From contig MNWN01000011.1 of NCBI GenBank assembly GCA_001872545.1, forward strand, positions 2,089 to 66,088: a stretch of DNA of 64,000 nucleotides, in the 5' to 3' direction. Below, piece by piece: positions 4,918 to 59,873 of this stretch; within the stretch, counting starts at the first letter, position 1, and each line of letters opens with the position of its first letter. The stretch comes from Parcubacteria group bacterium CG1_02_58_44. Lineage in GTDB: Bacteria; Patescibacteriota; Patescibacteriia; SG8-24. Made by a program: the position numbers and the translations under genes. The notes below the pieces were generated by a model, which worked only from the letters and a program-made list of their open reading frames with translations, was not told the origin of the DNA and ran no database searches.

Positions 4918-5026
4918 CGACCGTCTTTTGTCTCTGATCGGAATCGGCTTGATTGTTTTTGCCCCCCCGATAAACTTCTTTTGAAGTGATTAACTTCCGC
5001 TAACTGATCAGTTTTTAACTGAAATT

Positions 5027-41735: not shown

Positions 41736-41820
41736 TCCAAAATATAAAGTTTTATCCTCGGCCACCGAGGAGTCGAAGGGGACGGTCTGGACTCGTGGCA
41801 GTAGCGAATTCTTCAAACAT

Positions 41821-42480
41821 ATGCAGGATCCGAATAGCGTCGAGATAGACGGTCTCCACGACAGCGGGGATGCGGACGGCAAGAAACCTGTCAGTTCACT
41901 GAAGAGATTTTTTGGTTTTGTCGGGGAGCTGCTGCATGTCGTAGTCATTTCCTTAGCCATCATACTTCCGATTCGCTACTTTCTGATTCAGCCCTTTTAC
42001 GTCAAGGGAGCTTCGATGGAGCCGAACTTTTACGATCACGAATACCTCATCATCGACGAGATCAGCTATCGGCTCCGTGAACCGCAGCGCGGTGACATCG
42101 TCGTCTTCAGGTATCCGGACGATCCGAGCCAGTTTTTCATCAAGCGCATCGTAGCCCTGCCGGGGGAGCGCATCGTCATTTCCGGCGGCGGCCTGTGCAT
42201 CCTCGATCAGGATCATCCGGAGGGGTTTCTGCTAGACGAGAGCGACTATATCGGTTCCACCTTCACTTCCGGCGACAAGGATCTGACCCTCGCCGACGGC
42301 GAGTATTATCTCATGGGGGACAATCGGGCCGCGAGCATGGACTCTAGGACGTTCGGTGCGGTTCCGAGACAGCTGATGATCGGAAAGGTCATGCTCAGAG
42401 GTTGGCCGCCGGACAGAATGACGATCTTTTCCGGGGTTACATATCATGAGGATGCGACCGGAGGAGAGACTTCGAACTGA
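41821..42480 (+). CDS. lepB: Signal peptidase I
   Basis: A TM segment is followed by the catalytic Ser region YVKGASMEPNF and the Lys box GDIVVFRYP...FIKRIVALPGE, plus the C-terminal GDNRAASMDSR box. The track ORF begins upstream and reads through the tRNA-Val. Start chosen at the first ATG after the tRNA. Confidence 0.8.
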   Translation: MQDPNSVEIDGLHDSGDADGKKPVSSLKRFFGFVGELLHVVVISLAIILPIRYFLIQPFYVKGASMEPNFYDHEYLIIDEISYRLREPQRGDIVVFRYPDDPSQFFIKRIVALPGERIVISGGGLCILDQDHPEGFLLDESDYIGSTFTSGDKDLTLADGEYYLMGDNRAASMDSRTFGAVPRQLMIGKVMLRGWPPDRMTIFSGVTYHEDATGGETSN

Positions 42481-44883: not shown

Positions 44884-47130
44884 ATGCTTGGAAGGTATGG
44901 GTACCGCAACCGGCCCAAGGTAGGGTCTTGGTTGCATATTCGAAACGCCAGCAGAACCTTGGTTTTGGTGGCTTTTGTTTTACTCGTTTTATTTTTGCCG
45001 GAAATTGTGTCGGCTCAGCTCACCACCGGTGACGTCGGGTTGGACTTCGCCACCGCGACCGGCTTGGCCACTACAGACATCAGGGTCTTCGTCGGACGGG
45101 TGATCAACGCCTTTTTTGCCCTGCTCGGATTCATCGCCGTTCTGCTTTACGTCTACGCCGGATATCTGTGGATGACATCAACAGGCGATGCGGCCAAGGT
45201 CGACCAGGCCAAGAAGGTCATCACCAACACGACCATAGGGCTGGTCATCATGATCATGGCCTACTCGATTACGGCCTTCATTATCCAAGCCCTCACCGGA
45301 CATTCGATCGTTCCCGGTGTGGGTGACGGGGACAGCCGACGCGATAGGGGAGACATGCCCATCGGCGACCGAACCTATGAGCTCGGTAACGGAATCATCG
45401 AATACCACTATCCGGAAGTCGGACAGGTCGACGTTCCGCGCAACACGAACATATCGATAACCTTCAAGCGGCCGTTGGTCCTGTCGACCGTTTTCCGCAA
45501 CTATGATGACGCCGGAACCTACGGAACTGAAGACGATACGGTCGGCGGCGTTGCGGTGCCGGAAGTCCTTCAGCTCAATACCGACAATTTCAAGATCATC
45601 GCCGTCGCCGACTTGGGAGGGACGGACGGTGCCAGTCCGGACGAGCGGTTCAGTACTAGGTATCCGGACAGCGGAGCGCTGGTCGATCCGCCGCCTACGG
45701 TTCGGGTTACGGCCGTAAGGGTAGTTTTTGATCCGTTGGAGGGTCAGACCATCACCATCTCTCCGGCGCTTCCGATCGGCAGCCCCACCACTGATATCGC
45801 CTATCGCGTGGCCCTCAAGGGAGGCGACAACGGCATCAAGGTCTGGTGGCCTGGCGTAACGGAAGGTGCAGAACTCGTTCAGAAGAACGCCTTCAGTTCG
45901 ATGAATGCGGACGGCGGCTACTACTGGCCGTTTACGACCGGAACTATGCTTGACCTGACGCCGCCGCACATAACGTGGGTAGAGCCGACGCCGGTTATCG
46001 ATCCGGGCCGCCCAGAAAACGTAGCAGCTCGCAATCAGCTGCTGCAGATCTACTTCAACGAGGCGGTCGATCCGACCACGGTGAGCGGCATCATCGGTGA
46101 GGGCGGCGGATTCACCAATATAGAGGTAAGGGCTCGCTGCCTGCCGGACACCGACTGCGACTTTAACGATGGAGTGGATTTCACTTCCGTTTCGGGCAAG
46201 ATCTTCATAGGCAATCGCTACAGGACGGCCGAGTTCGTGCCTAGCGAACCTTGCGATGGCGTTACCGAGAACACCTGCGGCAACCAGGTTTTTTGCCTAC
46301 CGCGCAACGTCGAAATTCGTGTCCGTGCCCTAGCTGCGACGTTGAGCTCGGAACCGCCGAAGGCTTCACGTCCGGACGGCGTGTTGGACATGGTCGGCAA
46401 CTCGTTCGACGGCAACGGCAATGGTACGGCCGAGGGTCCGGAGAGCGCGGAGCGTCGGACTGACTTCAATCGTAACAGTCCGCCCGCTGCACTAGCGGGA
46501 ATCAACGATACGGCCCGGTGGACTTACCATGTCGGTGAGAGGATCGACCTCGTGCCGCCGACGATCATGGACATCGACCCCAAGAGCCCGCCGCCGATCG
46601 ATCGGGCCCATCCGGAGGGGCCGTCGAAGGTTCCGACTGATCTGCCGATAACAGTTCTGTGGGACAAGACCATGAGTGTCATGTCGATGCGGACCGGTGC
46701 GTACGACGAGGACGAGAATGCCTTCTCCGACGACCGGACGACTATTTCCCTACGTTCCAAGGAACTGGCCAAGGAAAGCCTGGATCAGGACTGTTCCGAT
46801 CCGGATGTGGCCTGTCCGTACGTCTCGTTGGATCCACCGTACTTCTTTATAGATCTGGGTGAAGGTCCGGAGGAGATCGGTGGTATCAAGAGGACCAGAA
46901 TGATGATCACACATCGTATCTTCTTCACGGCCAACGACATGGGCTACACCATGGAAGAAACGGCTTCGTGGCCCGAACGCTTGCCAGTCTATCAGCCGGT
47001 CATCGGAGCTCAGATACAGGACACGCTTCAGAACTGCTTTTTCCCAAGTGTCGGATGGAATTGTGATATGGGCGACAACAACTCTTGCTGCAATCGGGTC
47101 GGTCAGGAGGACTATTTCTGTCCGCTTTAG
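44884..47130 (+). CDS. Large secreted protein (748 aa) with an N-terminal signal peptide, a VirB2/TrbC-type pilin-like module (two TM helices), SbsA/Ig-like domains and a Cys-rich C-terminus
   Basis: SAQLTTGDVGLDFATATGLATTDIRVFVGRVINAFFALLGFIAVLLYVYAGYLWMTSTGDAAKVDQAKKVITNTTIGLVIMIMAYSITAFIIQAL is highly similar to the N-terminus of the adjacent giant protein. Downstream are Ig-like stretches (NTNISITFKRPL, LQIYFNEAVDPTTV, LPITVLWDKTMSV). Confidence 0.7.
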   Translation: MLGRYGYRNRPKVGSWLHIRNASRTLVLVAFVLLVLFLPEIVSAQLTTGDVGLDFATATGLATTDIRVFVGRVINAFFALLGFIAVLLYVYAGYLWMTSTGDAAKVDQAKKVITNTTIGLVIMIMAYSITAFIIQALTGHSIVPGVGDGDSRRDRGDMPIGDRTYELGNGIIEYHYPEVGQVDVPRNTNISITFKRPLVLSTVFRNYDDAGTYGTEDDTVGGVAVPEVLQLNTDNFKIIAVADLGGTDGASPDERFSTRYPDSGALVDPPPTVRVTAVRVVFDPLEGQTITISPALPIGSPTTDIAYRVALKGGDNGIKVWWPGVTEGAELVQKNAFSSMNADGGYYWPFTTGTMLDLTPPHITWVEPTPVIDPGRPENVAARNQLLQIYFNEAVDPTTVSGIIGEGGGFTNIEVRARCLPDTDCDFNDGVDFTSVSGKIFIGNRYRTAEFVPSEPCDGVTENTCGNQVFCLPRNVEIRVRALAATLSSEPPKASRPDGVLDMVGNSFDGNGNGTAEGPESAERRTDFNRNSPPAALAGINDTARWTYHVGERIDLVPPTIMDIDPKSPPPIDRAHPEGPSKVPTDLPITVLWDKTMSVMSMRTGAYDEDENAFSDDRTTISLRSKELAKESLDQDCSDPDVACPYVSLDPPYFFIDLGEGPEEIGGIKRTRMMITHRIFFTANDMGYTMEETASWPERLPVYQPVIGAQIQDTLQNCFFPSVGWNCDMGDNNSCCNRVGQEDYFCPL

Positions 47131-47161: not shown

Positions 47162-50100
47162 ATGCGCATAGACCGAAAAAAATTGGTAACTGCCGCGGTG
47201 GTGGTCTTTGGTGTGGCCCTGCTCGTATTTCCGGTTTTGGCGCAGACCGATTTGGGTTTGGATTACGCAACGTCGACCGGTCTTGGTACGACCGACATCC
47301 GGACAATCATCGGCAACATCGTCAACTACTTCCTTGGGCTGTTGGGCATCATAGCCGTACTGCTGATCCTCTACGGCGGCTTTAAGTGGATGACGTCGCA
47401 GGGCAACGAGGAACAGGTCGCCGATGCGAAGAAGATCATCGTCTCCAGTGTCATCGGTTTGGCTATCATCCTGTCCGCTTTTGCCATCGCGCAATTTATT
47501 CTAAGAGCGATAATCTCTGGCACCGGATTCGAAGGTGATGTAGGGCCAGGAGGCGGACGGTGTCCGCCTGGAGAGGTCTGCGGCATACCTGGAGCCGGCT
47601 CCGGCGGGTTTAAAGTCTCCGGCGTGGTGCCGGCCGGCAACGGTCCGGGAGGTTCCGGCTGGCCCAAGAACTACGCCATTACCGTTGCCTTTAGCCATGA
47701 AGTCGCGGCGGCAACCGTTAACGGAACTTCCTTTGTGGTGGAGAGGTGCAATCCGCGGTTGTCTGGCGGTGACCCTGCTCCGTTCAATGAGAGGAATTGC
47801 AATACCGTAGTTTCGGGTACTCGGACAGTTGAGGCTAATCGAATAGTCTTTAGACCCGACGATACGCCTGGAGACTATCCTACCGATTTCGAAGAAGATT
47901 ATTGGTATCGGGTACGGGTACTCGGTGGCGACGTCACCGACGTTCGTGGTCGAATTCTGGTCTGTCCTTTCTTGCCGCCGGGTCCGGACGGTGACATTTC
48001 GTCACCACGTGCGCTGTCGAGCCTGTGCGACCGGGCCATGGCCTTCAACAACCTTCGCGATGTCGAACCTCCGACCGTCAGGATCGACTCTCCTGCTTCC
48101 GCACCAGCCTACTGCCTGGACCGGATTCGCATCCGGGCCAGGGTGGAGGACGACTTCCTTCCGTCAAGGGTCGACTTCATGTTGGATGGGGGTCTGGCTC
48201 ACTTGATGGACGCCGACGACGAGCCCCTGTTTAGCGTTATCAATGCCGCACTGGATAATCCGTTCCTGTCCGATTCGGTCTTCATCGATTCCTCGAGTTT
48301 GGCCGATGGCGAGCACACCCTGTCCGCCGTCGGTTACGACGGCGTGCCCCAGGCCAGTGAGGCGGTCGACAAGAGGTTCAGGATAAATCCGGCCCATTGC
48401 TGTGACAGCGTACTGGATGCCGAGCTGGGTGAGGATGAGATAGATTGCGGTGCGGAGTCCGGCTGTGGTGCATGTCCGGAAGGTTTGTGTACAGAAGATG
48501 CCGATTGCGCGTCGGGTCTCTGCGAATCAGGGCACTGTGTGGCACGTCCGACGATACTCGATGTCTCTCCACTGAGGGCCGGACCCGGGACGCTGGTGAC
48601 GATCAGCGGTCGGTACTTCGGCGGAACCATGGGTCAGGTAGTTTTCTTGGGTGGCGATACGGACGGGGACGGTGAGGAGGCGGGGGATGACGACGACAGG
48701 TCGGCGGCTGCCTGTTCGCCCTGGTCCTGGTCCGACGATGAGGTAGTGGTCGCAGTTCCGGACGGAGCGGTCACCGGACCGCTGCAGCTGATCACCTCAG
48801 CCGGAACTTCGGATCGCACTGACGATGATTTTGAGCCGATGATCGGTGCCTTCTCTGTCAATGACGAGGTTTTCCCCGGAATCTGCTATCTGGAACCGAG
48901 TACAGGATCGGCCGGCGATCGGTTCATCGCCCACGGTGCCGGCTTTGGGGATGCCATGGGTGCCAGCCTGATCAGGATGGGTGGGGTGAGCGCCGACGTG
49001 GCGGCCGGAGGCTGGACGGCCTCGGCCGTTTCCGCCGCCGTTCCGTCCGTGCTGGCCGAGGGTATCTATCAGGTTGGGGTGATGGTCGGCGGACTGGACG
49101 GCATCGCGACTAACCAGCTCAACTTTACCCTGCGACGCCGCGACGAGGACGTCGGACCGCGAATAATCGAGATACTCCCGTCTTCCGGTCCGGTCGGCTC
49201 CTATGTCACCCTGCGCGGCACCGGTTTTGGACGGCGTAAGGGATTGGTCAGGTTTTTTTCTTCGCCGGACGGAGTCGACGGAATCGATTCGGCCATAGCC
49301 GCCGATCCGATCTGCGACGACAACTGGCATGATAACTACATCGTCGTAAAAGTACCGGACAAGTACATTGGCGACCTGGACATCGATCTAATTCGTCATC
49401 GGGTAGAGGTCGAGACGGCCGCTCCGGCTCAAACCAGTAACCGAGTAGACTTTTTGATCGATGGCAGTCCGTTGACGCCAGGAATGTGCTCGATTACGCC
49501 TGACAACGGCAAACCGGGCATACCTGTGATCGTATCGGGCGAGGGTTTCGGGCCGGGTCCGGCCAACGTAGACGCTCCCGGTTTCGCTGGGTTTGACGGC
49601 CGTCAGCCGGAAAGTTCGCTTCGTTTTTACGTTTCTGGGGCGGCGGCTGCTCCTGGTTTGATGGACGGCTTGATTACCAAGCCGTCGACGGCCTATTTGT
49701 GGTCTAGAACATCCGTCCGATCGGCGATCCCCGGCAATCCGGCCGACCGGAGCACTTGGCCGAATTCCGGTCCGGTTTTTGTCGTGGCTCGTAATGTGGC
49801 CACCCGCAATCCGATTCCGTTCAAGATTGGCGACTGCAATGACGATGGGATTTGCGAGGAGGGGACAACCTGCTGTGCCAACGGTTCGTGCCGTGAGTCC
49901 TGCGAACCGGAGGCTCGGAACAGTAAGTTCGGCTGGTACTTCAGTACCGACGTCCTACCTACCTTGCCCGTAGTGATACAGCGATCTTCCTGCAATATGG
50001 TGGCCGGCACCATTCAAAGTCCGACACCACAACACAGGGCGACCGATGCCTGTCGCAATGCTGAGGCGGCTGTGGAGTTTAGTCAGCCGATGAATATCGG

Positions 50101-53100
50101 TTCGCTGGACGATCCTGAGTCGCTGCTCATTGAGGAATGCGGTAGCGGTCGCGATATCGACTGTGCCGACCCACCAGTTGTCGTGCCGATCGCCAGACCG
50201 GTCGGGACTGACCTGACTGCAGACGGCATGACTATTCTTTCCATCCATCCGAGCAGTTTGGTTTATCCGCCGAACGATCTCGATGATGACGAGAACGAGC
50301 CGTTTACCGGTTACTTCAAGATCGGCACTTGGTATCGGGTGACCTTGGTTTCCAAACCGGGCGAAGTCGGCATTTTCGACACGACCGGCCGGTATCTGGA
50401 CGGAGATTATGATCGACGGGCCGGTGGTAATTTCACCTGGACTTTCAGGACAAGGACCGATCCGGCGGCCTGCGCTGCCGACAGCGTCATGGTCCTGCCG
50501 TCACGCTATACGATCACCCATCAGGGCATGCCCCCGGATCCGGACATCGGATTTAGCGCCGCACTGATGAACGGAGCCAACTGCAACAGGCTGCAGTGCG
50601 TCGGCCGTGAAGGCTTTGACCTGAGATGGTCGAGCGATCCGGGTGTATTCATCAGTTTGCTTGGTGCCGGTCCGGTCGCCGGATGTCGACAGCAGGTTAC
50701 AGGTCTGCTCGAGACCCCCGTTGACGCACCGGAAAGACTGACTGTATCCCTGCGGCCGGTCGGTGAGCTGCTGGACCGCAGGAGCACTTCGGCAGTGTCC
50801 GTAGCCTTCGCCGATCCGCGGGTAGTGCGGGTCATGCCGACTGAAGGCTGCACTGAGGCCTGTGTCAACGCGGTGGTCGGCGCGGTTTTCAACATACCGA
50901 TGAGTGCGCGGTCTTTCGCCGGAAACGTCGAACTGCTGCAGTGCCGCAACTCTTCCTGCAACCCACCTTTCGTTCCGATTGAGTTTACGGTCACGTCAGT
51001 CAGGGACGATGGTATCCGTGTGCTTCCGCTCGGCGATCCCGATGCGGTCCTTCAGGTCAGGATAGAGCCGGTTCCTGATGTCGGGGAGATGCCAAGGTTG
51101 ACGCCTGATACCTTCTTTAAGGTCAGAATCAGGGGCGGAGCCGACGGGGTTCTTTCCACGAGTGACATACCGCTCACTGGACTCAACACGCCCGGCTTTT
51201 ACGAATGGAAATTTAAGACTAGGACCGACGGCAGCATCTGCGAGATCTCTCGGGCGGAGATTGTTCCGCCTAACGCCACCTTGCGTTACGTAAGCGAACG
51301 TTTCGGCCTCAGTGTCGGAGCGTACGGACCGGCTGGTGACGAGTGCAGTCCCGACGGTCAGGAGATAAACGCCTGGGGCTATGATTGGGACTGGTCGGTC
51401 GATCCGAATCCCGTCCTGGTCGGTTTCATCAGGGCTAGAGATGTTGGTTCGGAAACCGGAATAGGCATCAGAGTCGACACGAATCCAGCGCCGAGGCGCG
51501 GCTGCGACAGCCAATGTCTGTTGGTCGGCTCGACCGATGTCGTTTCGCAGTGCGGAAACACCGATCCGGCTGATCCTCGTCCGCCTAGGGATCGGGCCGA
51601 GATTGGGGAGGACTGCGACGATGGCGATATCGACGGAGGCGACGGCTGCAGCGCGAACTGCCTGGCCGAAGGTTCTGCCTTCCCGACTTGCGGCAACGGC
51701 CGGTTGGATTCGGGGGAGCTGTGTGAGGCGCTTCCCGATGGGGAAGGGACCTTAGTCTTTCCGTTGGGCTGCAAGGATCCCAATATAAATATTGATGACA
51801 GGCCTGAACTTAACGACATAGGCTGTATTTTCTTGGGGTCTACGGCTGGAGGGTCGGTCTGTGGCGACGGTATTTGGGGTGACGGCGAAGCCTGTGAGGA
51901 CGGAAACCGACGCGATGGCGATGGCTGCAGCGCGGACTGTCTTCATGAAGGGACGTTTTCTATATGTACGGACGCTACGCCGGTGGACGTAAGATGCGTC
52001 AGTCAGTGCGGCAATGCCCATATTGAGCCGGGCGAGGATCCGGACTGTGACTTGGCCGGAGGCGTCGCATTGGGTTGCGATTTGCACTCTTGCACTAAGA
52101 CCGGTTCGGAGTCAGCTCAATGTTTGAATGATCATCTAGATCCGGGGGAGGAGTGTAGAGATGGAAATACTGATAACGGCGACGGCTGCAGCAGCCGCTG
52201 TCTGCTTGAAGGATCGTCGGCCTTCTATCGGGTACCTTCCTTTTGTGGTGACGGGTTTGTCGGACAGGGCGAGCATTCGTACTGTGACGGTGACGAAGTT
52301 GAGCCCGACAGGCTGATTGACAGTCGACAGATTACGGTCGCCGGAGACTACGATTCGACCGCCGGCGCCGCTACGACGAGCGTAGTGCATGCTTCGGTCG
52401 ATCGGCTGCCGGAAGGTTCCAGGGGTAACTCACGCGTGACGCTGACCTGTAACTGCAGCTCACAGGTCAGTCCCGACGGGTACTGTTTGGGACTGCTGGA
52501 CGGAGTGCCGGCCGCCCTGCGGCCGCCGGCCGGTTTGGCCTGCGCCGATTCGGGCTGCTGCGCACCTAGACCTTACGGCAGGCTGACCTATCCGGTTGAG
52601 GGCTCGGTCGGTATCTGCCGCAACACCGCCATACACTTGGAATTCGATCAGCCCATGAACGCCACTTCAATTAGTCAGAATCTATTGATCGGCGTCGACA
52701 GTGGTCCAGACGGCTGTCCGGCGGCTTTGGACGGCGGTCCAGATGAGAGCGGGGTCATTGAAGTACCGCCCTTCCCTCCGCCCCTGCCTGGACCGTTGGC
52801 CGTTGGGCCTGGCGGCCTGCTTCGTCGGGCTTGGTCGGCTGTCGCTGCATTTTTCGGTGACCTGTTCGGCCGGCCGGCTGCAGGTCATGCCCTCGGTATC
52901 CCGCATACCCATTTCTGCTCGATCACTGGAGATGTCACCGTTAGACTGACGGACGAGTCTAGAACCGAGGTCGAGTTTATGCTCGATCACGCCTTGCCTG
53001 CGGGAACCAGAATTAGGGTTAGGGTCCAGCCGGATGCCAGGACGATCGGCGGAGTCAGAATTAATCCGGCCGGACTGACTGCTGAGTTCACCACCGGTGA

Positions 53101-56100
53101 TCTGATCTGCGCCGTCGATCGCGTGATCGTCAGTCCGGAATCGGTCTTGCTGAACAGCGTTCGGGCTCCGGACCGGCCTCTCGTGGCTCGTGGCGTGTCC
53201 GACGACCGCGGCATTCGTGTCGACGGCGATGCCGCTAGTCTGATCGTGCCGACCAGGGAATACTCTTGGTCATGGGAATGGCTGCCGCTCTCTGAGAGGC
53301 TGCCGCATGTCTCTCCGGCCGTACTGAATCCGGTCACTGTCGGAGGGCGGCAGAGCGAGCGAGCGATGGTTCGGGTCAGGGGGCGCGAAACCGGGGACGA
53401 TCCGATCGGATACGTGCCGCAGGACGGTGTTGTAAATGTTTCGGTCAATGCTGTCACCGTCAATCCTGACGGTTCCGTTGCCCGTCTGCCGGTACTCGAC
53501 GGGCTTACCGGTCTGCCCGTACCAGATGAGTTCGTACTCCCTGGTAGTTCAACGGTTACGGTCGCGCTTTGTGACGTCATCTGGCCAAAGGTTCAGACCT
53601 GCGGCGATGATGGGAGGCTGCATCTGCCTTGGGATCCGGACAATCTACTCAATCCGCTCCATGGTGAAGAATGTTCGGCTGGAGTGGAACAGTTCTGGTA
53701 TCCCTTCACGGATCCGGAAACGAAAGCCAGCTTCTACTACTGCCGTGACATCTCGGGAGGCGACGGCGACGATCTTCTGCCGGCCATCGATGAGGATTTC
53801 GTTCTCGTCCACCCGGGCGGCGACATCCTGCACGAGTATCTCTTCACCTTTGCCGGCGCTGGGGCCGGTGATGCTTGGCAGAAAGATGCCGTAGGTTTCC
53901 GGACAATGTACAACCCGAGGCATATCGGCGTGGCCGACTGGTATCGCGACCGCGGTTTCTCCGGTGCGCCGATGCCGTTCAATGTCGACGGATACGACGC
54001 CATGAAGGAAGGTCGGACCGTCTACGTCAATTCCGCGTTTCTGGACGACACCCTGCATCTTTCCACTAACGTCAACGTCTTTTCGTTCAGTGACGGGTCC
54101 GCACCGGAGACGGTCACGGTCTTCAACCAGATAATGAATCGCATCAACTTCAACCGGCAGTCGGGACTCATGGACACTTTCATCTGTCAGGACGACGGCC
54201 GGGCGGTCTTGGACGAGGGCGGAAGCGCTTTGACCTGTTCCATCGATCTCGACTGCACGACAGGCACCTGTGGTGTCCCGAAGTCGAAGCTCGTACGTGA
54301 CGTGCGACGCTGGTCGGACCTTCACACCATGAGGTCTCTTCTCATGGCCAATCGTCCGCTTCCGACATTGGGCGAAGGCACCTTCATACGCTCCAGGACG
54401 TACAGCATCTGGCCGTCATGGGGCGACGTCCTGTCCCTGTCCGTCGGACGAACCATGCCGTCGGATCCCATAAACGCATTGGCATCTTGTTCGAGCGACG
54501 GTTTTGATTCGGAGACCTGCTGGAATTCGGTCAGTCGTGAGTTCAGTTGCGGAAGCCGTTCCAGCATCTATAGGTATCAGATCTTGGCCGGTCAGGCCGA
54601 TCTGTCCGTAGACATGGAGCTGGTCGGTCCGAAATGGAAAGGCACGACCTGCATCGAGATAACGGACAGTGTTGCCTGTGGGGCCATGTCTGGCTGTGTC
54701 TGGACAGGCGCTCCACCGAGCGGTAGCTGCAACTACGAGACCGTCAGGTTCCGTGCCTATGGGATAAACGCCGGTGCCGACATGTGTACCGGAGCGGTTG
54801 AGAGTGAGGAGGCGGGCTGCGGTAACGGCATCATCAATTCCGGTGAGGCCTGCGAACTGGGAGACCTCAGGACTCAGGAAGGAGCAGACGGTATCTGTGT
54901 CGGCGGAACCGTGGAGCAGGCCTGCACGTCGGACTGTCGCGGCTGGGAGGACGTACCCGGAACCTGCCGGATCGGCTACTGCGGCGACGGACGGAGACAG
55001 GGGGCCGAAACCTGCGATGACGGACCGCTCAACGGGACGTACGGGCACTGCAACGGCATCTGCAGAGGTTCGACCTTTTACTGTGGCGATGGTCTGTCCC
55101 ATCCCAGTGAGCTGTGCGATTGCGGCAGCTTGAATGGAAGTTATGCGGTCAACGCGGTTATTGCGCCATCGGGTGGGGTTCGTGCTTGTAGCACTGAAGA
55201 ACCGCGCACTGGGGCTAGTTTCGCTTCCTGTTCCTGGGATTGCCGTGGTCCGGCTCCGCACTGCGGCGACGGCATCATCAACGGCGTCGAGCAGTGCGAT
55301 GGCGGTTCTGAGGAGAGTCGTGGCGTTTGTCGGCGACCGGCTGACGACCCGCTGCATCCGTCGGGAGGCACCTGCACGGCAGACGCCGACTGCAATCTCG
55401 CGGGCGGGGAGCGCTGCGTGACCTGTCTGACTGTCGAACAGAGGTTCCGTCGGGCCTGCAACCCGAATAACGTCACTTCGGCCGATGACGAAAGAGATGG
55501 AGTGCCCAATCAGTCCTGTCACTGGAGTGCCTGGTCGTGTACCGCCCCCGGACGTTGCGGCAACGGCGTGACCGAGACCGGCGAGCAGTGCGACGACGGC
55601 AACGACGAGGATAACGATGCCTGCACCAGCGCCTGCATCAGCAACGTCTGCGGCGACGGATTCGTGAACGCGGCCGGCGGCGAGCTGTGCGACAGCGGCG
55701 GAAGGAACAACACTCCCTGCGTGCCCGAGTACGGGCATACCTGCAACTACTGCACTTCGGCCTGCCGATTGGGTACGGTTTCTGGCGGCTACTGCGGCGA
55801 CGGCCTGCTCCAGAACGCCAGTTCGGAGATACCGGGTCCCGAACAGTGCGACACGCACGGTGTGGTCATCGGTGACGGTTGGGTCTGCGTCAGCACCAGG
55901 CCCAAGGACAGGAGCTTCGGTACGCAGACCGGCTACGGCATCTGCTCGCTGAGCGGATGTGGCTACTCCTGTGCGGACAGAGATTCGGAGCTGTGCCAGA
56001 ATGATGCACTCGATGGCAATTCAGACCTCATACTTCCCGAAAGTTTTGAGGTAAGCATGGCGTCCAGGCCTGAATCCTGCGCCTTTATGGATTACGTTCC

Positions 56101-57238
56101 CTTGCGCATGGCTCCGCCGGTTGGAGGGCGGAGTCCGGGCAGCGAGCCCAGGTCGCTTTTCGAGTTCTGTTTGGATCGGCAGCGTCTGGTCGGCGGCAGT
56201 TCGGGAGAGCCTCCGTTGGCCAGACTGTCTAATAATTGCGATTCGGACGACGACAACGACGGCGTTCCGGACGAATTGGACTGTGGCCCCACAGATCCGT
56301 CGGTCAGGCCGGAGTATCGGATTCCGGGCACCACTCTGGTGGTTCCGGCCGGAGATCAAGAATGCACCGGCGACGGCAACTGCAACGGAGATTTTGGAGA
56401 TCTTCCGCCGTATCTGCATAAGAAGGTTGACATGGTGTTCGTCATCGACGTGACAAGGTCGATGAACAGCATCATCGACTCCCTGATCGACTCCCTGAGT
56501 GATTTCGTCACTAATCTTAGCGGTGCCAGAGGAATAGATCTCCAGTTTGGTTTCGTGACTGTAGGGCAGGCTGAGACTTTAACGCTCAGCATGATGAAGT
56601 CCCATCCGGTTCGTCCCGCCCTAGGGCCGTACATGTTTGCCCAGCTCGACGACATCGGTTCGTTTGGCGACAGCTTGCAGGCAATGAGGGACAATTGCTG
56701 GAGTAATGACGGTCACCATACTGACTTATGCTCTGTCGGCAAATATGAACCCCTTTATGCCGCAGCTTATGCCCTAATGAGACCCGGATCGGTCAGCTGC
56801 GGTCCGGAGGACGGCTGTGACCCGGCATTGGACCAGGTGTTGGATTACGGCATCGCATGGCGGGACGATGCCCAGCCGTATGTGGTGATAGTCGGCGATG
56901 AACCGCCGCCGGTGGGCGCGACATGGAGTGGTGACGATATGACCGGACGGGAGGAAGCTGAGGGGCTCCTGAGGTATATTGATCTTAATCGCGTCGCCGA
57001 TGCGGCCAAGGACTGTACCTTGCCCGGATGCGCTGACGGCGGCTATGTGGAGCTTTTCGTGATCAGTCGGCGGGTCAACAGGGATTACTGGTTGGATGTC
57101 CTGCCTACGACAGAAGACGGTTCGCGTCTGACGGCCGAACAGCGTTACATCAGTTTTGATGACGGCGGCGGGACCAATGGGCTCAACGGCGAGGCCTTGG
57201 TCGCCAGCATATTTCAGTACATCTGCCCTGCTCCCTGA
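47162..57238 (+). CDS. Giant multidomain surface protein (3358 aa): signal peptide + VirB2/TrbC-like pilin module + SbsA/Ig-like + several IPT/TIG-like domains + Myxococcus-type Cys-rich repeats (DUF4215-like) + Asp-rich calcium-binding-type segment + C-terminal von Willebrand factor A domain
   Basis: The N-terminus LAQTDLGLDYATSTGLGTTDIRTIIGNIVNYFLGLLGIIAVLLILYGGFKWMTSQGNEEQVADAKKIIVSSVIGLAIILSAFAIAQFIL. IPT-like PTILDVSPLRAGPGTLVTISGRYFGG, PRIIEILPSSGPVGSYVTLRGTGFG, PGMCSITPDNGKPGIPVIVSGEGFG. Cys repeats GEDCDDGDIDGGDGCSANCLAEG, GEACEDGNRRDGDGCSADCLHEG, GEECRDGNTDNGDGCSSRCLLEG, GEQCDDGNDEDNDACTSAC. The segment CDSDDDNDGVPDELDCGPTDPS. The VWA/MIDAS start VDMVFVIDVTRSMNSIIDSLIDSL. Single uninterrupted ORF of 10,077 nt. 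Confidence 0.8.
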   Translation: MRIDRKKLVTAAVVVFGVALLVFPVLAQTDLGLDYATSTGLGTTDIRTIIGNIVNYFLGLLGIIAVLLILYGGFKWMTSQGNEEQVADAKKIIVSSVIGLAIILSAFAIAQFILRAIISGTGFEGDVGPGGGRCPPGEVCGIPGAGSGGFKVSGVVPAGNGPGGSGWPKNYAITVAFSHEVAAATVNGTSFVVERCNPRLSGGDPAPFNERNCNTVVSGTRTVEANRIVFRPDDTPGDYPTDFEEDYWYRVRVLGGDVTDVRGRILVCPFLPPGPDGDISSPRALSSLCDRAMAFNNLRDVEPPTVRIDSPASAPAYCLDRIRIRARVEDDFLPSRVDFMLDGGLAHLMDADDEPLFSVINAALDNPFLSDSVFIDSSSLADGEHTLSAVGYDGVPQASEAVDKRFRINPAHCCDSVLDAELGEDEIDCGAESGCGACPEGLCTEDADCASGLCESGHCVARPTILDVSPLRAGPGTLVTISGRYFGGTMGQVVFLGGDTDGDGEEAGDDDDRSAAACSPWSWSDDEVVVAVPDGAVTGPLQLITSAGTSDRTDDDFEPMIGAFSVNDEVFPGICYLEPSTGSAGDRFIAHGAGFGDAMGASLIRMGGVSADVAAGGWTASAVSAAVPSVLAEGIYQVGVMVGGLDGIATNQLNFTLRRRDEDVGPRIIEILPSSGPVGSYVTLRGTGFGRRKGLVRFFSSPDGVDGIDSAIAADPICDDNWHDNYIVVKVPDKYIGDLDIDLIRHRVEVETAAPAQTSNRVDFLIDGSPLTPGMCSITPDNGKPGIPVIVSGEGFGPGPANVDAPGFAGFDGRQPESSLRFYVSGAAAAPGLMDGLITKPSTAYLWSRTSVRSAIPGNPADRSTWPNSGPVFVVARNVATRNPIPFKIGDCNDDGICEEGTTCCANGSCRESCEPEARNSKFGWYFSTDVLPTLPVVIQRSSCNMVAGTIQSPTPQHRATDACRNAEAAVEFSQPMNIGSLDDPESLLIEECGSGRDIDCADPPVVVPIARPVGTDLTADGMTILSIHPSSLVYPPNDLDDDENEPFTGYFKIGTWYRVTLVSKPGEVGIFDTTGRYLDGDYDRRAGGNFTWTFRTRTDPAACAADSVMVLPSRYTITHQGMPPDPDIGFSAALMNGANCNRLQCVGREGFDLRWSSDPGVFISLLGAGPVAGCRQQVTGLLETPVDAPERLTVSLRPVGELLDRRSTSAVSVAFADPRVVRVMPTEGCTEACVNAVVGAVFNIPMSARSFAGNVELLQCRNSSCNPPFVPIEFTVTSVRDDGIRVLPLGDPDAVLQVRIEPVPDVGEMPRLTPDTFFKVRIRGGADGVLSTSDIPLTGLNTPGFYEWKFKTRTDGSICEISRAEIVPPNATLRYVSERFGLSVGAYGPAGDECSPDGQEINAWGYDWDWSVDPNPVLVGFIRARDVGSETGIGIRVDTNPAPRRGCDSQCLLVGSTDVVSQCGNTDPADPRPPRDRAEIGEDCDDGDIDGGDGCSANCLAEGSAFPTCGNGRLDSGELCEALPDGEGTLVFPLGCKDPNINIDDRPELNDIGCIFLGSTAGGSVCGDGIWGDGEACEDGNRRDGDGCSADCLHEGTFSICTDATPVDVRCVSQCGNAHIEPGEDPDCDLAGGVALGCDLHSCTKTGSESAQCLNDHLDPGEECRDGNTDNGDGCSSRCLLEGSSAFYRVPSFCGDGFVGQGEHSYCDGDEVEPDRLIDSRQITVAGDYDSTAGAATTSVVHASVDRLPEGSRGNSRVTLTCNCSSQVSPDGYCLGLLDGVPAALRPPAGLACADSGCCAPRPYGRLTYPVEGSVGICRNTAIHLEFDQPMNATSISQNLLIGVDSGPDGCPAALDGGPDESGVIEVPPFPPPLPGPLAVGPGGLLRRAWSAVAAFFGDLFGRPAAGHALGIPHTHFCSITGDVTVRLTDESRTEVEFMLDHALPAGTRIRVRVQPDARTIGGVRINPAGLTAEFTTGDLICAVDRVIVSPESVLLNSVRAPDRPLVARGVSDDRGIRVDGDAASLIVPTREYSWSWEWLPLSERLPHVSPAVLNPVTVGGRQSERAMVRVRGRETGDDPIGYVPQDGVVNVSVNAVTVNPDGSVARLPVLDGLTGLPVPDEFVLPGSSTVTVALCDVIWPKVQTCGDDGRLHLPWDPDNLLNPLHGEECSAGVEQFWYPFTDPETKASFYYCRDISGGDGDDLLPAIDEDFVLVHPGGDILHEYLFTFAGAGAGDAWQKDAVGFRTMYNPRHIGVADWYRDRGFSGAPMPFNVDGYDAMKEGRTVYVNSAFLDDTLHLSTNVNVFSFSDGSAPETVTVFNQIMNRINFNRQSGLMDTFICQDDGRAVLDEGGSALTCSIDLDCTTGTCGVPKSKLVRDVRRWSDLHTMRSLLMANRPLPTLGEGTFIRSRTYSIWPSWGDVLSLSVGRTMPSDPINALASCSSDGFDSETCWNSVSREFSCGSRSSIYRYQILAGQADLSVDMELVGPKWKGTTCIEITDSVACGAMSGCVWTGAPPSGSCNYETVRFRAYGINAGADMCTGAVESEEAGCGNGIINSGEACELGDLRTQEGADGICVGGTVEQACTSDCRGWEDVPGTCRIGYCGDGRRQGAETCDDGPLNGTYGHCNGICRGSTFYCGDGLSHPSELCDCGSLNGSYAVNAVIAPSGGVRACSTEEPRTGASFASCSWDCRGPAPHCGDGIINGVEQCDGGSEESRGVCRRPADDPLHPSGGTCTADADCNLAGGERCVTCLTVEQRFRRACNPNNVTSADDERDGVPNQSCHWSAWSCTAPGRCGNGVTETGEQCDDGNDEDNDACTSACISNVCGDGFVNAAGGELCDSGGRNNTPCVPEYGHTCNYCTSACRLGTVSGGYCGDGLLQNASSEIPGPEQCDTHGVVIGDGWVCVSTRPKDRSFGTQTGYGICSLSGCGYSCADRDSELCQNDALDGNSDLILPESFEVSMASRPESCAFMDYVPLRMAPPVGGRSPGSEPRSLFEFCLDRQRLVGGSSGEPPLARLSNNCDSDDDNDGVPDELDCGPTDPSVRPEYRIPGTTLVVPAGDQECTGDGNCNGDFGDLPPYLHKKVDMVFVIDVTRSMNSIIDSLIDSLSDFVTNLSGARGIDLQFGFVTVGQAETLTLSMMKSHPVRPALGPYMFAQLDDIGSFGDSLQAMRDNCWSNDGHHTDLCSVGKYEPLYAAAYALMRPGSVSCGPEDGCDPALDQVLDYGIAWRDDAQPYVVIVGDEPPPVGATWSGDDMTGREEAEGLLRYIDLNRVADAAKDCTLPGCADGGYVELFVISRRVNRDYWLDVLPTTEDGSRLTAEQRYISFDDGGGTNGLNGEALVASIFQYICPAP

Positions 57239-57244
57239 TTCCTT

Positions 57245-57769
57245 ATGAACAAAAATAATCTTATTTTGATAGTTCTGGGTGCAGCGGCGGTTTTGGCCGT
57301 CGGTATGGCCGTGTTTGCCGTCTTGCGTAATCGGCAGCCGGCCGTGAGTCCACTGGACCGGTTCGACGAACATGGTGCCGTGGAGGTTCCGGTGGGCATC
57401 GACGACGACGGCGGACCGATTGAGGAGACAAGGGCAATCTGCGGCGACGGCATCTGTACTGCGGCCGAGTCCGTAGACATCTGCTGGTCGGATTGCGTCG
57501 ACTACGGTTCGTTCAGCGACATTAGCCTGACGAACCTGTCCGCCGGTCAGGTGGAGATTACCTGGAAGACCTCCAAGCCCATGACTTCGGCCGTAGATTA
57601 CGGCTTCAGCGAAAGCTACGAACTCGGTTCGGTGTCCGATTCCCAGCTGTTGACCGACCACAGACTGTTGACGGTCAGACTGAACGGCAGTGAATTTTTC
57701 TTCAGGCTGCGGGGGACCGACGGGGAGGGCAACGAGGAATCCTTCTCTAGTTTGGGCAACGAAAGATAA
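57245..57769 (+). CDS. Small single-pass membrane protein with a Cys motif ([19 protein letters not shown]) and an FN3-like segment; paralog 1 of 3
   Basis: N-terminal [24 protein letters not shown], then the CGDGxC...CxxDC motif shared with the next two genes and with repeats in the giant protein. Confidence 0.6.
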
Positions 57770-57777
57770 TCGCCCTT

Positions 57778-58590
57778 TTGCAGGGTAACCAGAATCGCAT
57801 TCATATGTTCGAAGAGCAGAACGAGCCGGTAGACATATTTTCGGAAACGGAACCGGCCAAGGACGGCGGCATCAGTCCGTCGGTCGGCAGCCAACCTCCG
57901 GTTATGGGCGGATCGCCGCCGTCTTCCGGAACTTTACCTACACCGGTGTCTGGCATAACTCCCCAGATAGACATCGCCGCATCTAGGGGTCCGTCCAAGA
58001 TCCTGTTCGTCGTAATTTTTCTGCTGCTGGTCGGTGCAGTCGGCGTCGGTATCTGGTATTTCGTTCTTAGTGGCGACGGTGCAGTTCCGGTCGGGAACGA
58101 GCCGGCCGACGTCAATTCGAACGATTCCGGTTCGGCGATAGACGTTCAGATTCCGGAGCCGGAGAATCGATCGCTTTGCGGTAACGGAGTCTGCGATCTG
58201 GATGAGGACAAGTTCTCATGTCCGGCGGACTGTCCGCTGATTTCGCCCGTTTGCGGCGACGGCATCTGTCAGGCCGACGAGGGCAGCTTGGACTGTCCGG
58301 CCGACTGCCAGGCCACTCCCGACGAGCCGGTCATGCCGCCGGAACCGGCGAATCAGCCGCTCGACACGGACGGCGACGGCCTGAGTGACGCCGAGGAGAC
58401 GGCACTCGGCACCAATCCGCAGATGGCCGACACTGACGCCGACGGGCTGACGGACCGGGAGGAACTGCGTCAGTACTCGACCGATCCGACCAGTCCGGAC
58501 TCGGACGGCGACGGCTATATCGACGGCGAGGAGGTGTGGGCCGGTTACGACCCCAACGGCCCAGGCAAGCTGCTTAACTTGCCCCAGTAG
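57778..58590 (+). CDS. Single-pass membrane protein with two CGxGxC..CPADC Cys motifs and Asp-rich TSP3/calcium-binding-like repeats; paralog 2 of 3
   Basis: [128 protein letters not shown]. Confidence 0.6.
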
Positions 58591-58613
58591 CTGAGGGCTA
58601 TTCGATAGGTCCT

Positions 58614-59873
58614 ATGGCAGACGAAAAGAAAATTTCCGACGGTTTGGACAGGCCCTCCGGCACCTTAACGTCTTCGACGTCCGACGCCGACGAGCCGGAG
58701 ATTTTCGTAATGCCGGAGGAATTCTATGGGGCCGCCGTCAAGCCCAAGCCGGAAGCGGCAGTGTCGTCAGCCTCACCTGCGGTTTCGTCGCCTGCAGCCG
58801 TCTCGACCGTCAAGACGGGCAAAGGTTTCACCGTGGCGATCGTCACCTTAGCCGCGATCTTGGTCGTTGCCTTGGGAGTCGCGGTCTATTTCGTGTTTTT
58901 CTCCGGTCCGAAGTCCGTCTGCGGTAACAACCTCTGCGAGTCAGGCGAAACGTTTGCGGCCTGCCCGAACGACTGCGAACCGCCGCCGTCGGTCTGCGGC
59001 GACGGTGACTGTGAGAGTTCCGAGAGCTACCTGTCCTGCCCGTCCGATTGCCGCCAGCCAGATGCCGTCTGCGGGGACAGACAATGCAACGGGGACGAGA
59101 CTGCCGAATCTTGTCCGGAGGACTGCCGGCCGCCGGCTGAGTGCGGCGACGGACGATGCGAAGCCGACCGTGGCGAGAGCTATGATTCCTGCCGGAGCGA
59201 CTGCCAGCCGCCTGAGCCGGTGCCGTCAGTCGATACCGACAGCGACGGTCTGACTGACGTCGAGGAGACGAGTATCTACGGCAGCGACCCCAATGGCACC
59301 AACAGCGACGGCGACAGTTTCGTTGACCTGAACGAGGTGATCAACCTTTTCGATCCGGCCAAGAAGGAACCGGCCCGCCTGATCGACAGTCCCGGAATCT
59401 CCGCCTATCGGAATGAGGATTACGGATTCGAGATTTTCTGCCCTACAGCTTGGGGCAAGAGTGACCTGCCGTCCGAGCAGTCGGTGCGCTTTACTTCGCC
59501 GACCGGCGAGACGGTTAAGGTGACCGTCTTTATCAAGCAGCCGGAGACGACCTTGGACGATTGGTTACGGTCCTCTTCGGTCAGCGGACTGTCGGCAGTC
59601 GGACAGGCCGGCCGGTCTATCAACCGCCATGGCTACGAGCAGGTGACCATGTCGGACCGTCGGACAGTGCTGATTTCGGACGGCACAAATGTAGCCCTGC
59701 TGCGTTACGACCTGGAAGGCCAGCTCGAGGTGCGCTATCGGGTGACGCTGTCCGTCATGGCCAACAGCTTGACTTTCGTGACCAAGCCCTCTCCGTCAGC
59801 CGAGACCTTGTCGGGAACCGGGTCGGTTCTGCCCGTATCTGAATCGTCGGATGCAGAATCGGATCGTCCTTAG
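58614..59873 (+). CDS. Single-pass membrane protein with four CGxxxC..CPxDC Cys motifs, Asp-rich calcium-binding-like repeats and a C-terminal globular domain; paralog 3 of 3
   Basis: TM VAIVTLAAILVVALGVAVYFVFF. CGNNLCESGETFAACPNDCEPPPSVCGDGDCESSESYLSCPSDCRQPDAVCGDRQCNGDETAESCPEDCRPPAECGDGRCEADRGESYDSCRSDCQPP. DTDSDGLTDVEETSIYGSDPNGTNSDGDSFVDLNEV. Confidence 0.6.
   Translation: MADEKKISDGLDRPSGTLTSSTSDADEPEIFVMPEEFYGAAVKPKPEAAVSSASPAVSSPAAVSTVKTGKGFTVAIVTLAAILVVALGVAVYFVFFSGPKSVCGNNLCESGETFAACPNDCEPPPSVCGDGDCESSESYLSCPSDCRQPDAVCGDRQCNGDETAESCPEDCRPPAECGDGRCEADRGESYDSCRSDCQPPEPVPSVDTDSDGLTDVEETSIYGSDPNGTNSDGDSFVDLNEVINLFDPAKKEPARLIDSPGISAYRNEDYGFEIFCPTAWGKSDLPSEQSVRFTSPTGETVKVTVFIKQPETTLDDWLRSSSVSGLSAVGQAGRSINRHGYEQVTMSDRRTVLISDGTNVALLRYDLEGQLEVRYRVTLSVMANSLTFVTKPSPSAETLSGTGSVLPVSESSDAESDRP

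Follow-up and report, generated by a model that had tools for sequence, protein, structure and literature searches.

What does a pilin module of the conjugative type do at the head of a surface protein of more than 3000 residues? This question is raised by a 10-kb gene that lies in a 64-kb stretch of DNA, here called the window, from the uncultivated, ultrasmall CPR bacterium Candidatus Uhrbacteria. The T4SS of the Patescibacteria, essential in their sole cultivated model, has no components for DNA transfer, and its role has been called 'completely unknown' (PMC11665869; PMC10633639). A survey of 3,035 genomes reported VirB2-like pilins to be present and an adhesin not to be found (PMC12102498). 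A sequence-only reading of the window had proposed that the gene is uninterrupted, that it comes from a small-genome bacterium, and that it encodes an adhesin-like protein tethered by a VirB2/TrbC-type module, with a VWA domain at the far end. We analyzed the gene, its product, its relatives, and its neighbors to see how much of this holds.

The giant gene (47162..57238, + strand) is a single ATG-to-stop reading frame of 3358 codons plus the stop, with zero internal stops, and its product is identical to OIO52508.1, 'hypothetical protein AUJ19_01335'. The longest open reading frame in any other frame over the same stretch has at most 480 aa. By simple arithmetic, a random frame at about 58% GC would contain about 3.5% stop codons, and 3358 stop-free codons would arise by chance with a probability of about e^-119. 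The GC content is even along the gene, and the only tandem repeat at the DNA level is a single 25-nt stretch. Repeat-rich giant genes are easily mis-assembled in metagenome-assembled genomes, from which this gene is known, and we asked whether the single reading frame could stem from chimeric assembly, from an overlooked frameshift, or from a pseudogene in decay. We find such an artefact extremely improbable and reject both chimerism and a missed frameshift because, besides the near absence of DNA tandem repeats, several assemblies hold identical or at least 90% identical full-length copies of 3358 aa, the protein is collinear over ~3000 aa with orthologues that are only 25-65% identical, and ~150 Cys/Gly/Trp positions are unchanged in 15 orthologues. 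The identical protein is recorded from two contigs, one of them in GCA_002322515.1 (NCBI assembly), and its 90% cluster holds four full-length copies (NCBI, JGI, ENA). In Candidatus Uhrbacteria assemblies, the identical copy carries the name 'hypothetical protein' and a variant at least 90% identical the name 'VWFA domain-containing protein' (UniRef). The uninterrupted gene is thus confirmed by its open frame, by identical copies in independent public assemblies, and by its collinear orthologues. The N-terminal sequence quoted in the sequence-only reading is present in the translated frame, and the predicted small-genome source agrees with the CPR affiliation.

The protein opens with a predicted Sec-type signal peptide (aa 1-28; 47162..47245, +), recognized from sequence and hydrophobicity by an MRIDRKK n-region, a hydrophobic core, and the ending ...PVLA|Q, where the -3/-1 rule indicates a likely cut by signal peptidase I. 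It is followed by a VirB2/TrbC-like pilin hairpin (aa 29-121; 47246..47524, +), in which a conserved segment, DLGLDYATSTGLGTTDIR, stands ahead of helix 1 and the loop KWMTSQGNEEQVADAKK links helix 1 to helix 2. Only three hydrophobic segments occur in the whole protein, at aa ~5-33, 46-80, and 86-121. The expected HMM similarity of this region to VirB2/TrbC-type pilins was indeed found: PF18895 (T4SS_pilin) matches aa 43-113 with 46.5 bits (curated cutoff 26.6; E 3.8e-12), and PF04956 (TrbC/VirB2) matches aa 4-113 marginally, its 28.1 bits being 0.2 bits above the cutoff of 27.9, while NF045849 stays just under its cutoff (39 against 40 bits). Moreover, hhalign aligned the module profile with VirB2 of Agrobacterium, Sinorhizobium, and Acetobacter over 55 columns (76% probability, E 2e-5), the register being kept from the mature N-terminus across both helices. 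The signal peptide and two-helix module of the earlier reading are therefore upheld by PF18895, by hhalign, and, barely, by PF04956. When the module profile was compared with all PDB sequences by hmmsearch, it gave no match at E<=10, to a solved pilin or otherwise.

The module shares 55-67% identity with 124-aa stand-alone pilins of Patescibacteria and 50-62% with the modules of the giant's own orthologues; L61, G62, G73, M77, G81, and G99 are invariant in both the giants and the stand-alone pilins. In size, the protein departs from the VirB2/TrbC pilins, which stand alone at ~70-150 aa: it has 3358 aa, of which the module, signal peptide included, makes up the first 121.

Beyond aa 121, hydrophobicity across the whole 3358-aa protein indicates no further membrane segment. 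A Gly-rich linker, recognized by sequence and composition (aa 122-163; 47525..47650, +), leads to a Big_5 (aa 164-264) and a Big_7 (aa 304-389) domain, both Ig-like and detected by Pfam (47651..48328, +), a Cys-rich knot with cysteines invariant in 15 orthologues (aa 410-461; 48389..48544, +), and an IPT/TIG block of three Pfam stretches, the best at aa 577-656 (48545..49741, +). The TIG domain is the only part recognized when the giant-family profile is compared with PDB sequences (CGTase domain D, IPT/TIG protein). Domain searches found the start of a further Big_5-like Ig domain at aa 952-990 (50015..50131, +) and of another at aa 1809-1846 (52586..52699, +). Cys-rich acidic repeats of the myxo_disulf_rpt / DUF4215 type, identified by HMM and motif, form one block at aa ~1464-1720 (51551..52321, +) and a second, with at least 7 copies of CG[DN]G...E.C[DE], at aa ~2506-2960 (54677..56041, +). 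In front of the second block lies a family-specific conserved domain pair (aa 2125-2500; 53534..54661, +), in which a PsbP/Mog1/LpqN-like alpha-beta domain precedes a small domain that weakly resembles the heads of type IV pilins or pseudopilins. According to the orthologue comparison, a TSP3-like Ca-binding motif, CDSDDDNDGVPDELDC (aa 3026-3041; 56237..56284, +), is the final part common to all orthologues, and a variable tip begins after it.

The repeats are well supported, with TIGR02232 (myxo_disulf_rpt) scoring 84.5 bits against a cutoff of 20.8 in 4 stretches, DUF4215 above its cutoff on sub-segments, and 9 CG[DN]G...E.C[DE] units found by regular expression; these myxo-type repeats account for the high cysteine content of the protein (148 Cys). 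The Ig-like domains, TIG domains, and myxo-type Cys repeats that had been proposed for an extracellular region of ~3200 aa are thus recovered (Big_5, Big_7, TIG x3, TIGR02232, DUF4215). An LPXTG motif, a C-terminal hydrophobic segment, and RTX repeats are absent, the C-terminus reading ...IFQYICPAP. A toxin or enzyme cargo was also considered and rejected, as Pfam, NCBIfam, and a fold search gave no catalytic or toxin domain.

The tip (aa ~3088-3358; 56423..57235, +) contains a MIDAS-like DxS/TxS...E...D motif formed by D3096-V-T3098-R-S3100, E3196, and D3246. An alignment of 5 orthologues shows no change at its D, S, E, and D, and either S or T at the middle position. The E at the place where MIDAS has T is presumably the integrin beta type. 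An AF2 model of the tip has low confidence (pLDDT 49.9, pTM 0.60) and an alternating beta/alpha pattern; when this model was searched with Foldseek against the PDB, the top 50 matches were all integrin beta chains (E 2e-7), with a TM score of only 0.44. The VWA HMM gave no significant Pfam match on the tip (E 0.18-0.26, first beta strand only), also when the tip was searched alone or beside the tips of orthologues, and a word-indexed protein search with the C-terminal 319 aa returned nothing at E<=1e-3. The C-terminal domain most likely folds like a VWA / integrin beta I domain and has a putative MIDAS-like metal site, as judged from the motif and the model. The earlier claim of a MIDAS-containing VWA domain thus holds in part: the DVTRS motif, the integrin-beta-like, low-confidence model, and the UniRef name speak for it, and the HMM match is missing. 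Likewise, the domain matches that had been predicted were obtained for T4SS_pilin, TrbC, Big_5, Big_7, TIG, TIGR02232, and DUF4215, the exception being VWA. The tips of the orthologues differ, being VWA-like in some, a C-type lectin in P0137 and P0142, and a CarboxypepD_reg-like domain in P0140; this exchange points to lineage-specific ligand recognition.

To count the family we relied on an exhaustive search of representative clusters, in which the hairpin module has 41,877 representative matches. Among the 149 closest representative clusters, the module heads a protein of at least 200 aa in 78, and 30 of those 78 have at least 2000 aa. Collinear orthologues of the giant, 3000-4080 aa long, are found in at least 25 clusters and come from many other assemblies. 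Two other searches proved less informative. A profile of aa 2125-2500 in a word-indexed search gave at least 6 matches, all shorter proteins, and is unsuitable for counting the family. A contig profile search with an alignment of 15 giants, keyed on the Cys-repeat and TSP3 motifs, retrieved mostly myxobacterial Cys-repeat proteins, the true giant orthologues in it being L001-L003 only. We found no earlier description of pilin-module giants in the searchable literature. The pilin-hairpin giant is a widespread, conserved, and so far undescribed family, not a one-off; the architecture, which the sequence-only reading had called unusual, is not so within the Patescibacteria, given the 78 extended modules, the orthologue clusters, and the synteny in five other genomes.

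In these five genomes (L002, L003, L086, L087, and L090), the gene order is HisRS-YqeY-medium paralogue-giant-TSP3 proteins-YbeY-FtsA-FtsZ, as in the window, with LytR-CpsA-Psr, signal peptidase I (41488..42480), and DAGK as further neighbors in conserved synteny. The medium paralogue (44884..47130, +; 748 aa by ORF, 723 aa at NCBI) has the same pilin module in front of Big_5-like domains and lies 5' of the giant in all five syntenic genomes; it belongs to an orthologue family of its own. Downstream, three genes encoding 174, 270, and 419 aa (57245..59873, +) follow with intergenic gaps of 8-23 nt. The 174-aa protein is Cys-rich and has its anchor at the N-terminus; the 270- and 419-aa proteins have an internal hydrophobic anchor after ~75 residues, CGNGxC...CPxDC mini-repeats, and TSP3 Ca-binding repeats, and their homologues again lie 3' of the giant in L002 and L003. 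A DsbA/thioredoxin-like (MdbA/DsbA-like) gene is found in the same window (21189..21968). Pfam searches on the long ORFs of the window found no VirB4, VirB3, VirB6, or VirD4, and a stand-alone pilin gene is likewise absent from the window; at the syntenic loci L002, L003, L086, and L087 no T4SS machinery genes were seen. Since there is no such machinery near the gene, 'pilin' is used here as a statement of homology and not of a role in a pilus. The housekeeping neighborhood, which is syntenic even where the giants are only 27-65% identical, led us to reject an origin in a mobile element or conjugative island. As a separate observation, the conserved place among housekeeping and division genes could signal a structural role in the envelope rather than adhesion.

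Several known systems resemble parts of this protein. VirB2 (Agrobacterium), TrbC (RP4), and TraA (F) have a signal peptide, two hydrophobic helices, and a short loop, as does the giant's module; however, the similarity is marginal, the loop of the module is 8 residues longer (hhalign with VirB2), and the giant has no VirB machinery alongside. VirB2 and TrbC undergo head-to-tail cyclisation, which the 3200-aa C-terminal extension makes implausible for the giant. Sortase-pilus tip adhesins such as RrgA, GBS104, and SpaC carry a VWA/MIDAS domain, and FimH-type adhesins join a pilin to a lectin domain. The giant follows the logic of these two-domain adhesins, with a pilin-type module and a distal VWA/MIDAS or lectin domain (C-type lectin in orthologues), but their pilin folds are unrelated, they are assembled by sortase or chaperone-usher systems, and their stalk is a polymer of subunits, whereas the stalk of the giant is a single 3000-aa polypeptide. 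The VirB2-like pilins of the Patescibacteria themselves (PF18895) share with the giant the phylum, the signal peptide, the two helices, the KWMT...AKK loop, and the module identity given above; these pilins stand alone at ~120-150 aa and are often found beside virB4, whereas the giant has 3237 residues after helix 2 and housekeeping neighbors. In Southlakia epibionticum they form an essential array, and 383 assemblies contain arrays of 2-11 such genes; the reports describing them make no mention of such fusions (PMC10633639; PMC12102498). Finally, SiiE, LapA-type RTX adhesins, and the giant membrane proteins of Vampirococcus lugosii (PMC6272769; PMC8080830) are, like our protein, thousands of residues long, with tandem Ig-like domains, Ca2+ motifs, and a presumed function in host attachment. 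The giant differs in that it has no T1SS C-terminal signal and no LPXTG, bears an N-terminal VirB2-like hairpin anchor, and contains 148 Cys.

From these features, we consider it fairly probable that the giant is a core, vertically inherited surface fibre, anchored by its pilin hairpin and serving as an adhesin, in Candidatus Uhrbacteria and their relatives among the Patescibacteria. The precursor would be exported by Sec and trimmed of its first ~28 residues by signal peptidase I. The VirB2-like hairpin would stay embedded in the cytoplasmic membrane, its two ends facing out and the KWMTS...AKK loop facing the cytoplasm; the homology to VirB2, together with the lack of a later hydrophobic segment, suggests that the ~3200 downstream residues are extracellular. 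The predicted stalk would string together Ig-like domains, TIG domains, and ~15 Cys-rich acidic repeats, and its length may be on the order of 100 nm. The cysteines, the TSP3 motif, and the MdbA/DsbA-like gene in the window suggest that the stalk is held by ~74 potential disulfides and Ca2+; MdbA-like oxidoreductases are enriched in CPR (bioRxiv 10.1101/335083). At its end, the distal VWA / integrin beta I-like domain, with its putative DxTxS...E...D metal site, may recognize a ligand exposed by a partner cell or a substrate, and the other tips of the orthologues (C-type lectin etc.) would set ligand recognition by lineage. Such a role has parallels: the cultivated Patescibacterium has essential adhesins as well as an essential VirB2-like pilin array (PMC10633639), and in the CPR bacterium Vampirococcus giant membrane proteins are thought to serve host attachment (PMC8080830). 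The hairpin would act at least as a membrane anchor and may be a handle for a VirB2-type assembly system.

How far that handle is used separates the remaining explanations. The module could be a working pilin subunit that is extracted from the membrane by a T4SS-like machine and co-polymerised with stand-alone VirB2-like pilins, placing the giant C-terminal part at the tip or side of a conjugative-type pilus, in a manner similar to the two-domain tip adhesins of other pilus systems. In F-type and VirB2 pili, the C-terminus of the pilin is exposed on the outside, so the geometry would allow a C-terminal fusion. The module is also no further from the stand-alone pilins than from the modules of its orthologues, and it keeps the invariant positions, including an extracellular pre-helix segment that a mere anchor would not need. 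Its nearest stand-alone relatives sit in arrays of 4-5 pilin genes, comparable with the essential T4SS pilin arrays (PMC12102498; PMC10633639), and the survey of Patescibacterial T4SS loci reported no dedicated adhesin (PMC12102498), leaving such a role unfilled. Nevertheless, T4SS genes adjoin the giant in none of six loci, the window is without a stand-alone pilin, a 3200-aa appendage on a 90-aa subunit would permit sparse or terminal incorporation only, and a pilus of this system has so far never been visualised, so we regard incorporation into a pilus as possible but rather unlikely. A broader idea, which we put forward as speculative and unlikely as it stands, is that the Patescibacteria VirB2-like hairpin may be a general sorting or assembly tag, as the class III signal peptide is for type IV pilins. 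By this tag, the essential T4SS-like machine, which has neither relaxase nor coupling protein, would recognize many surface proteins as its substrates, be they pilins of 124 aa or adhesins of 4000 aa. This machine would then be an apparatus for fibre and adhesin display, with the giant and its upstream paralogue as the largest cargo, presented to host cells on a heteropolymeric pilus or at its base.

Alternatively, the giant could build, together with the medium paralogue and the TSP3 proteins, a surface layer or spacer that is cross-linked by Ca2+ and disulfides, linked to the growth and division of the envelope, and equipped with self-associating tips. The strict synteny with LytR-CpsA-Psr, signal peptidase I, YbeY, DAGK, FtsA, and FtsZ, the closely spaced, co-directional, operon-like genes, and the co-conserved membrane-anchored TSP3 Ca-binding proteins 3' of the giant would fit such a layer. 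However, shared function need not follow from synteny in small genomes, and the distal domain varies among orthologues, which is typical of ligand-recognition modules and not of a self-assembling lattice; this makes a structural layer quite improbable. The giant family offers a concrete, testable candidate for partner attachment by ultrasmall bacteria and for the cargo of a pilin-type machinery. It would also widen the concept of the conjugative pilin, so far a small subunit that stands alone, to include a module reused at the N-terminus of other proteins. Should the hairpin serve only as an anchor, the annotation would still be useful, as it describes a core giant surface family of Uhrbacteria now labelled 'hypothetical' or 'DUF4215'. 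Besides the syntenic, adhesin-like family of 3000-4000 aa with its interchangeable VWA or lectin tips, the pilin module also heads many mid-sized surface proteins.

The sequence-only reading had described an uninterrupted 10-kb ORF, and this holds: positions 47162..57238 (+) of the window form a single ORF of 3358 codons from ATG to stop, while the other frames across the same interval contain no ORF longer than 480 aa. At a GC content of ~58%, we calculate the chance of a stop-free run of 3358 codons to be ~e^-119. Apart from one 25-nt repeat, the gene shows no DNA-level repetition that would hint at mis-assembly. Two contigs on record, each 50-200 kb long, encode an identical protein; one belongs to NCBI assembly GCA_002322515.1 (L090 is a locus encoding such an identical protein). 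The 90% cluster of this protein, hereafter the giant, includes four full-length copies of 3358 aa from NCBI, JGI, and ENA. The gene is real, and an artefactual ORF is extremely improbable. The giant is deposited as OIO52508.1, 'hypothetical protein AUJ19_01335 [Parcubacteria group bacterium CG1_02_58_44]', and derives from Candidatus Uhrbacteria in Crystal Geyser-type MAGs; UniRef100_A0A2M7QB34, which shares at least 90% identity with it, bears the name 'VWFA domain-containing protein'.

The only hydrophobic segments of the giant lie at approximately aa 5-33, 46-80, and 86-121, in agreement with the signal peptide and two-helix module proposed earlier. The first corresponds to a Sec-type signal peptide, likely cleaved at PVLA|Q, and the other two to a two-helix hairpin. 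The suggested resemblance to VirB2/TrbC-type pilins was also borne out, as both Pfam models exceed their cutoffs: T4SS_pilin (PF18895) matches aa 43-113 with 46.5 bits (cutoff 26.6) and TrbC/VirB2 (PF04956) matches aa 4-113 with 28.1 bits (cutoff 27.9, a difference of 0.2 bits). The score for the NCBIfam model of the Mbov_0395 pilin-like conjugal protein falls slightly under its cutoff. Using hhalign, we compared a Patescibacterial module profile of 37 sequences with an alignment of annotated VirB2 proteins encoded on Agrobacterium, Sinorhizobium, and Acetobacter plasmids. The match has a probability of 76% over 55 columns. Starting at the mature N-terminus, where GTTDIR pairs with GGTDPA, it stays in register across helix 1, the W-M turn, and the second helix, with a loop between the helices that is 8 residues longer in the Patescibacterial module. 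Because this in-register match is accompanied by no sequence match between the module profile and the solved pilins in the PDB, homology of the module to VirB2 is moderately, not strongly, supported.

No further membrane segment was detected by hydrophobicity beyond aa 1-121. The predicted extracellular region begins with a Gly-rich linker after the module, followed by Big_5 (aa 164-264) and Big_7 (aa 304-389) domains identified by Pfam, a Cys knot, and three TIG stretches; aa 952 and aa 1809 mark the starts of further Big_5-like domains. Next in order come two blocks of Cys-rich acidic repeats, recognized by TIGR02232 (84.5 bits), by DUF4215, and as nine regex units, and then a TSP3-like Ca-binding motif (aa 3026-3041). 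The protein contains 148 cysteines. The Ig-like, IPT/TIG, and myxo-type Cys repeats anticipated from the sequence are thus all present.

The proposed C-terminal VWA domain was more difficult to establish. Pfam matched a VWA in this tip with a non-significant E of 0.18-0.26 over one strand, a second Pfam run on the tip returned nothing, and a word-indexed search with the C-terminal region retrieved no relatives. Nevertheless, five orthologous tips can be aligned, with D3096, S3100, E3196, and D3246 invariant and S or T at position 3098. This DxSxS...E...D pattern is the integrin beta I version of the MIDAS motif. An AF2 model of the tip, of low confidence (pLDDT 49.9, pTM 0.60) and built from a shallow alignment, shows beta/alpha alternation, and all of its top 50 Foldseek matches in the PDB are integrin beta chains (E 2e-7, TM ~0.44). 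Given the conserved motif, the integrin-type matches of the model, and the UniRef name, the tip is probably a VWA or integrin I-like domain.

The sequence-only reading considered this architecture unusual, which is contradicted by its distribution. An exhaustive phmmer search with aa 1-133 of the giant against 1.84 billion representatives yielded 41,877 matches at E<=1e-3 and 8,510 at E<=1e-10. Among the best 149 of the 41,877, 22 are stand-alone pilins (<200 aa) and 49 carry two or more tandem modules; a single N-terminal module is found in proteins of 200-499 aa (6 matches), 500-1999 aa (42), and >=2000 aa (30). The nearest stand-alone pilins (57-65% identity) are encoded elsewhere, in arrays of 4-5 pilin genes. 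The tandem proteins (P0121-P0127, P0132, and others, all outside the window) contain 2-17 modules per polypeptide, with 17 module stretches in the 1775 aa of P0125; they could be true 'polypilins' or pilin-gene arrays read through owing to an incorrect genetic code or a faulty gene call.

By BLAST, the long matches include collinear orthologues spanning aa 1 to ~3075 of the giant: P0128 has 65.5% identity over its entire length, and no fewer than 25 other clusters are 25-47% identical. A 15-sequence alignment of the family contains ~150 invariant Cys, Gly, and Trp positions. The CDPDDDNDGVPD motif is common to the orthologues, and the distal tip beyond it is modular. The window protein shares a VWA-like tip with P0128, P0203, P0141, and P0185 (weakly with P0163), P0137 and P0142 carry a C-type lectin that passes the Pfam cutoff, and P0140, P0143, P0150, and P0175 have CarboxypepD_reg-like and other domains.

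Public databases already contain the giant and its family, but the names are uninformative, e.g. 'DUF4215 domain-containing protein', 'IPT/TIG domain-containing protein', 'cysteine-rich repeat protein', or 'Ig-like domain-containing protein [Candidatus Uhrbacteria bacterium]'. In Southlakia epibionticum, an essential VirB2-like pilin array lies inside a T4SS locus (PMC10633639). A survey of Patescibacteria reported VirB2-like pilins in 1,948 assemblies, in arrays of 2-11 genes, and stated that adhesins were not detected (PMC12102498). Patescibacteria are reviewed as having the sole monoderm T4SSs with pilins (PMC12857230), and the role of these systems has been termed completely unknown (PMC11665869). 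Giant membrane proteins were noted in Vampirococcus (CPR), with no mention of a pilin module (PMC8080830). We found no description of pilin-module giants in the limited literature collection searched, and a conserved syntenic family of giant adhesin-like proteins fused to a conjugative-pilin-type module appears to be undescribed.

The window is a chromosomal housekeeping stretch with genes for glycosyltransferases, a TrpRS/TyrRS-type synthetase, RNase J, UvrA, TopA, RelA/SpoT, Der, LytR, signal peptidase I, HisRS, YqeY, YbeY, DAGK, FtsA, and FtsZ; no VirB4, VirB6, or VirD4 genes were found within it. A stand-alone-pilin profile run against its six-frame translation identified exactly three module-bearing genes: the giant, a medium protein at 44884..47130 (+), and a third at ~21974..23944 (+). 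The medium protein (748 aa by ORF, 723 aa in NCBI) ends 31 nt before the giant, and combines the module with Big_5-like domains. Its orthologues form a family of their own, 600-860 aa long at 40-45% identity, and its gene lies ahead of the giant in all syntenic genomes inspected. The order Der-LytR-SPase I-HisRS-YqeY-medium-giant-TSP3 proteins-YbeY-DAGK-FtsA-FtsZ is shared by the window, the P0163 locus on an 856-kb contig (L086), and the P0128 locus (L087), and, starting at SPase I, by two further loci (L002 and L003), with giants just 27-65% identical to that of the window. This housekeeping synteny around diverged giants, together with the medium orthologue family, indicates that the medium protein and the giant form a core cassette passed on vertically, not a mobile T4SS island.

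The giant is probably a hairpin-anchored adhesin, a function that we infer. The hairpin would anchor it in the cytoplasmic membrane, leaving the C-terminal 3200 residues on the outer side, disulfides and Ca2+ would stabilize the stalk, and the tip might bind a ligand via its metal site. A purely structural role in the envelope seems improbable. The module could instead be a working pilin carrying the giant into a VirB2-type filament, as it retains the invariant residues of stand-alone pilins, extracellular pre-helix segment included, and is equally similar to them and to the modules of the orthologues; however, no T4SS genes lie near the giant, and we regard such incorporation as rather unlikely.

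The third module gene lies directly 3' of a DsbA/MdbA-like (thioredoxin-like) oxidoreductase gene (21189..21968); the module of its product (T4SS_pilin at aa 160-229 of the ORF) comes after a signal peptide and a segment rich in Cys, with ~480 aa of Cys-rich repeats behind it. Three small genes downstream of the giant (57245..59873, +) encode proteins of 174, 270, and 419 aa. The 174-aa protein is Cys-rich with an N-terminal anchor; the other two, with relatives in L002 and L003, have a hydrophobic anchor after ~75 residues, CGNGxCE...CPxDC mini-motifs, and TSP3 Ca-binding repeats, and the 419-aa protein has a weak PsbP-like C-terminus. Signal peptidase I (Peptidase_S26; 41488..42480, +) is encoded three genes upstream of the pair in all loci inspected, and this position makes it a plausible candidate for processing both signal peptides. 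In L086 (GCA_004297205.1), bAvd and reverse-transcriptase (RVT_1) genes, hallmarks of a diversity-generating retroelement, lie slightly upstream of the cassette, between LytR and signal peptidase I (3992-5325); the window has no counterpart. L002 (CAZORP010000008.1) and L003 (CAYNRK010000007.1) belong to MAGs labelled 'uncultured Gammaproteobacteria bacterium', labels that look wrong, as the cassette in both is of the Patescibacteria type and their syntenic housekeeping genes share 50-57% identity with those in the Uhrbacteria window.
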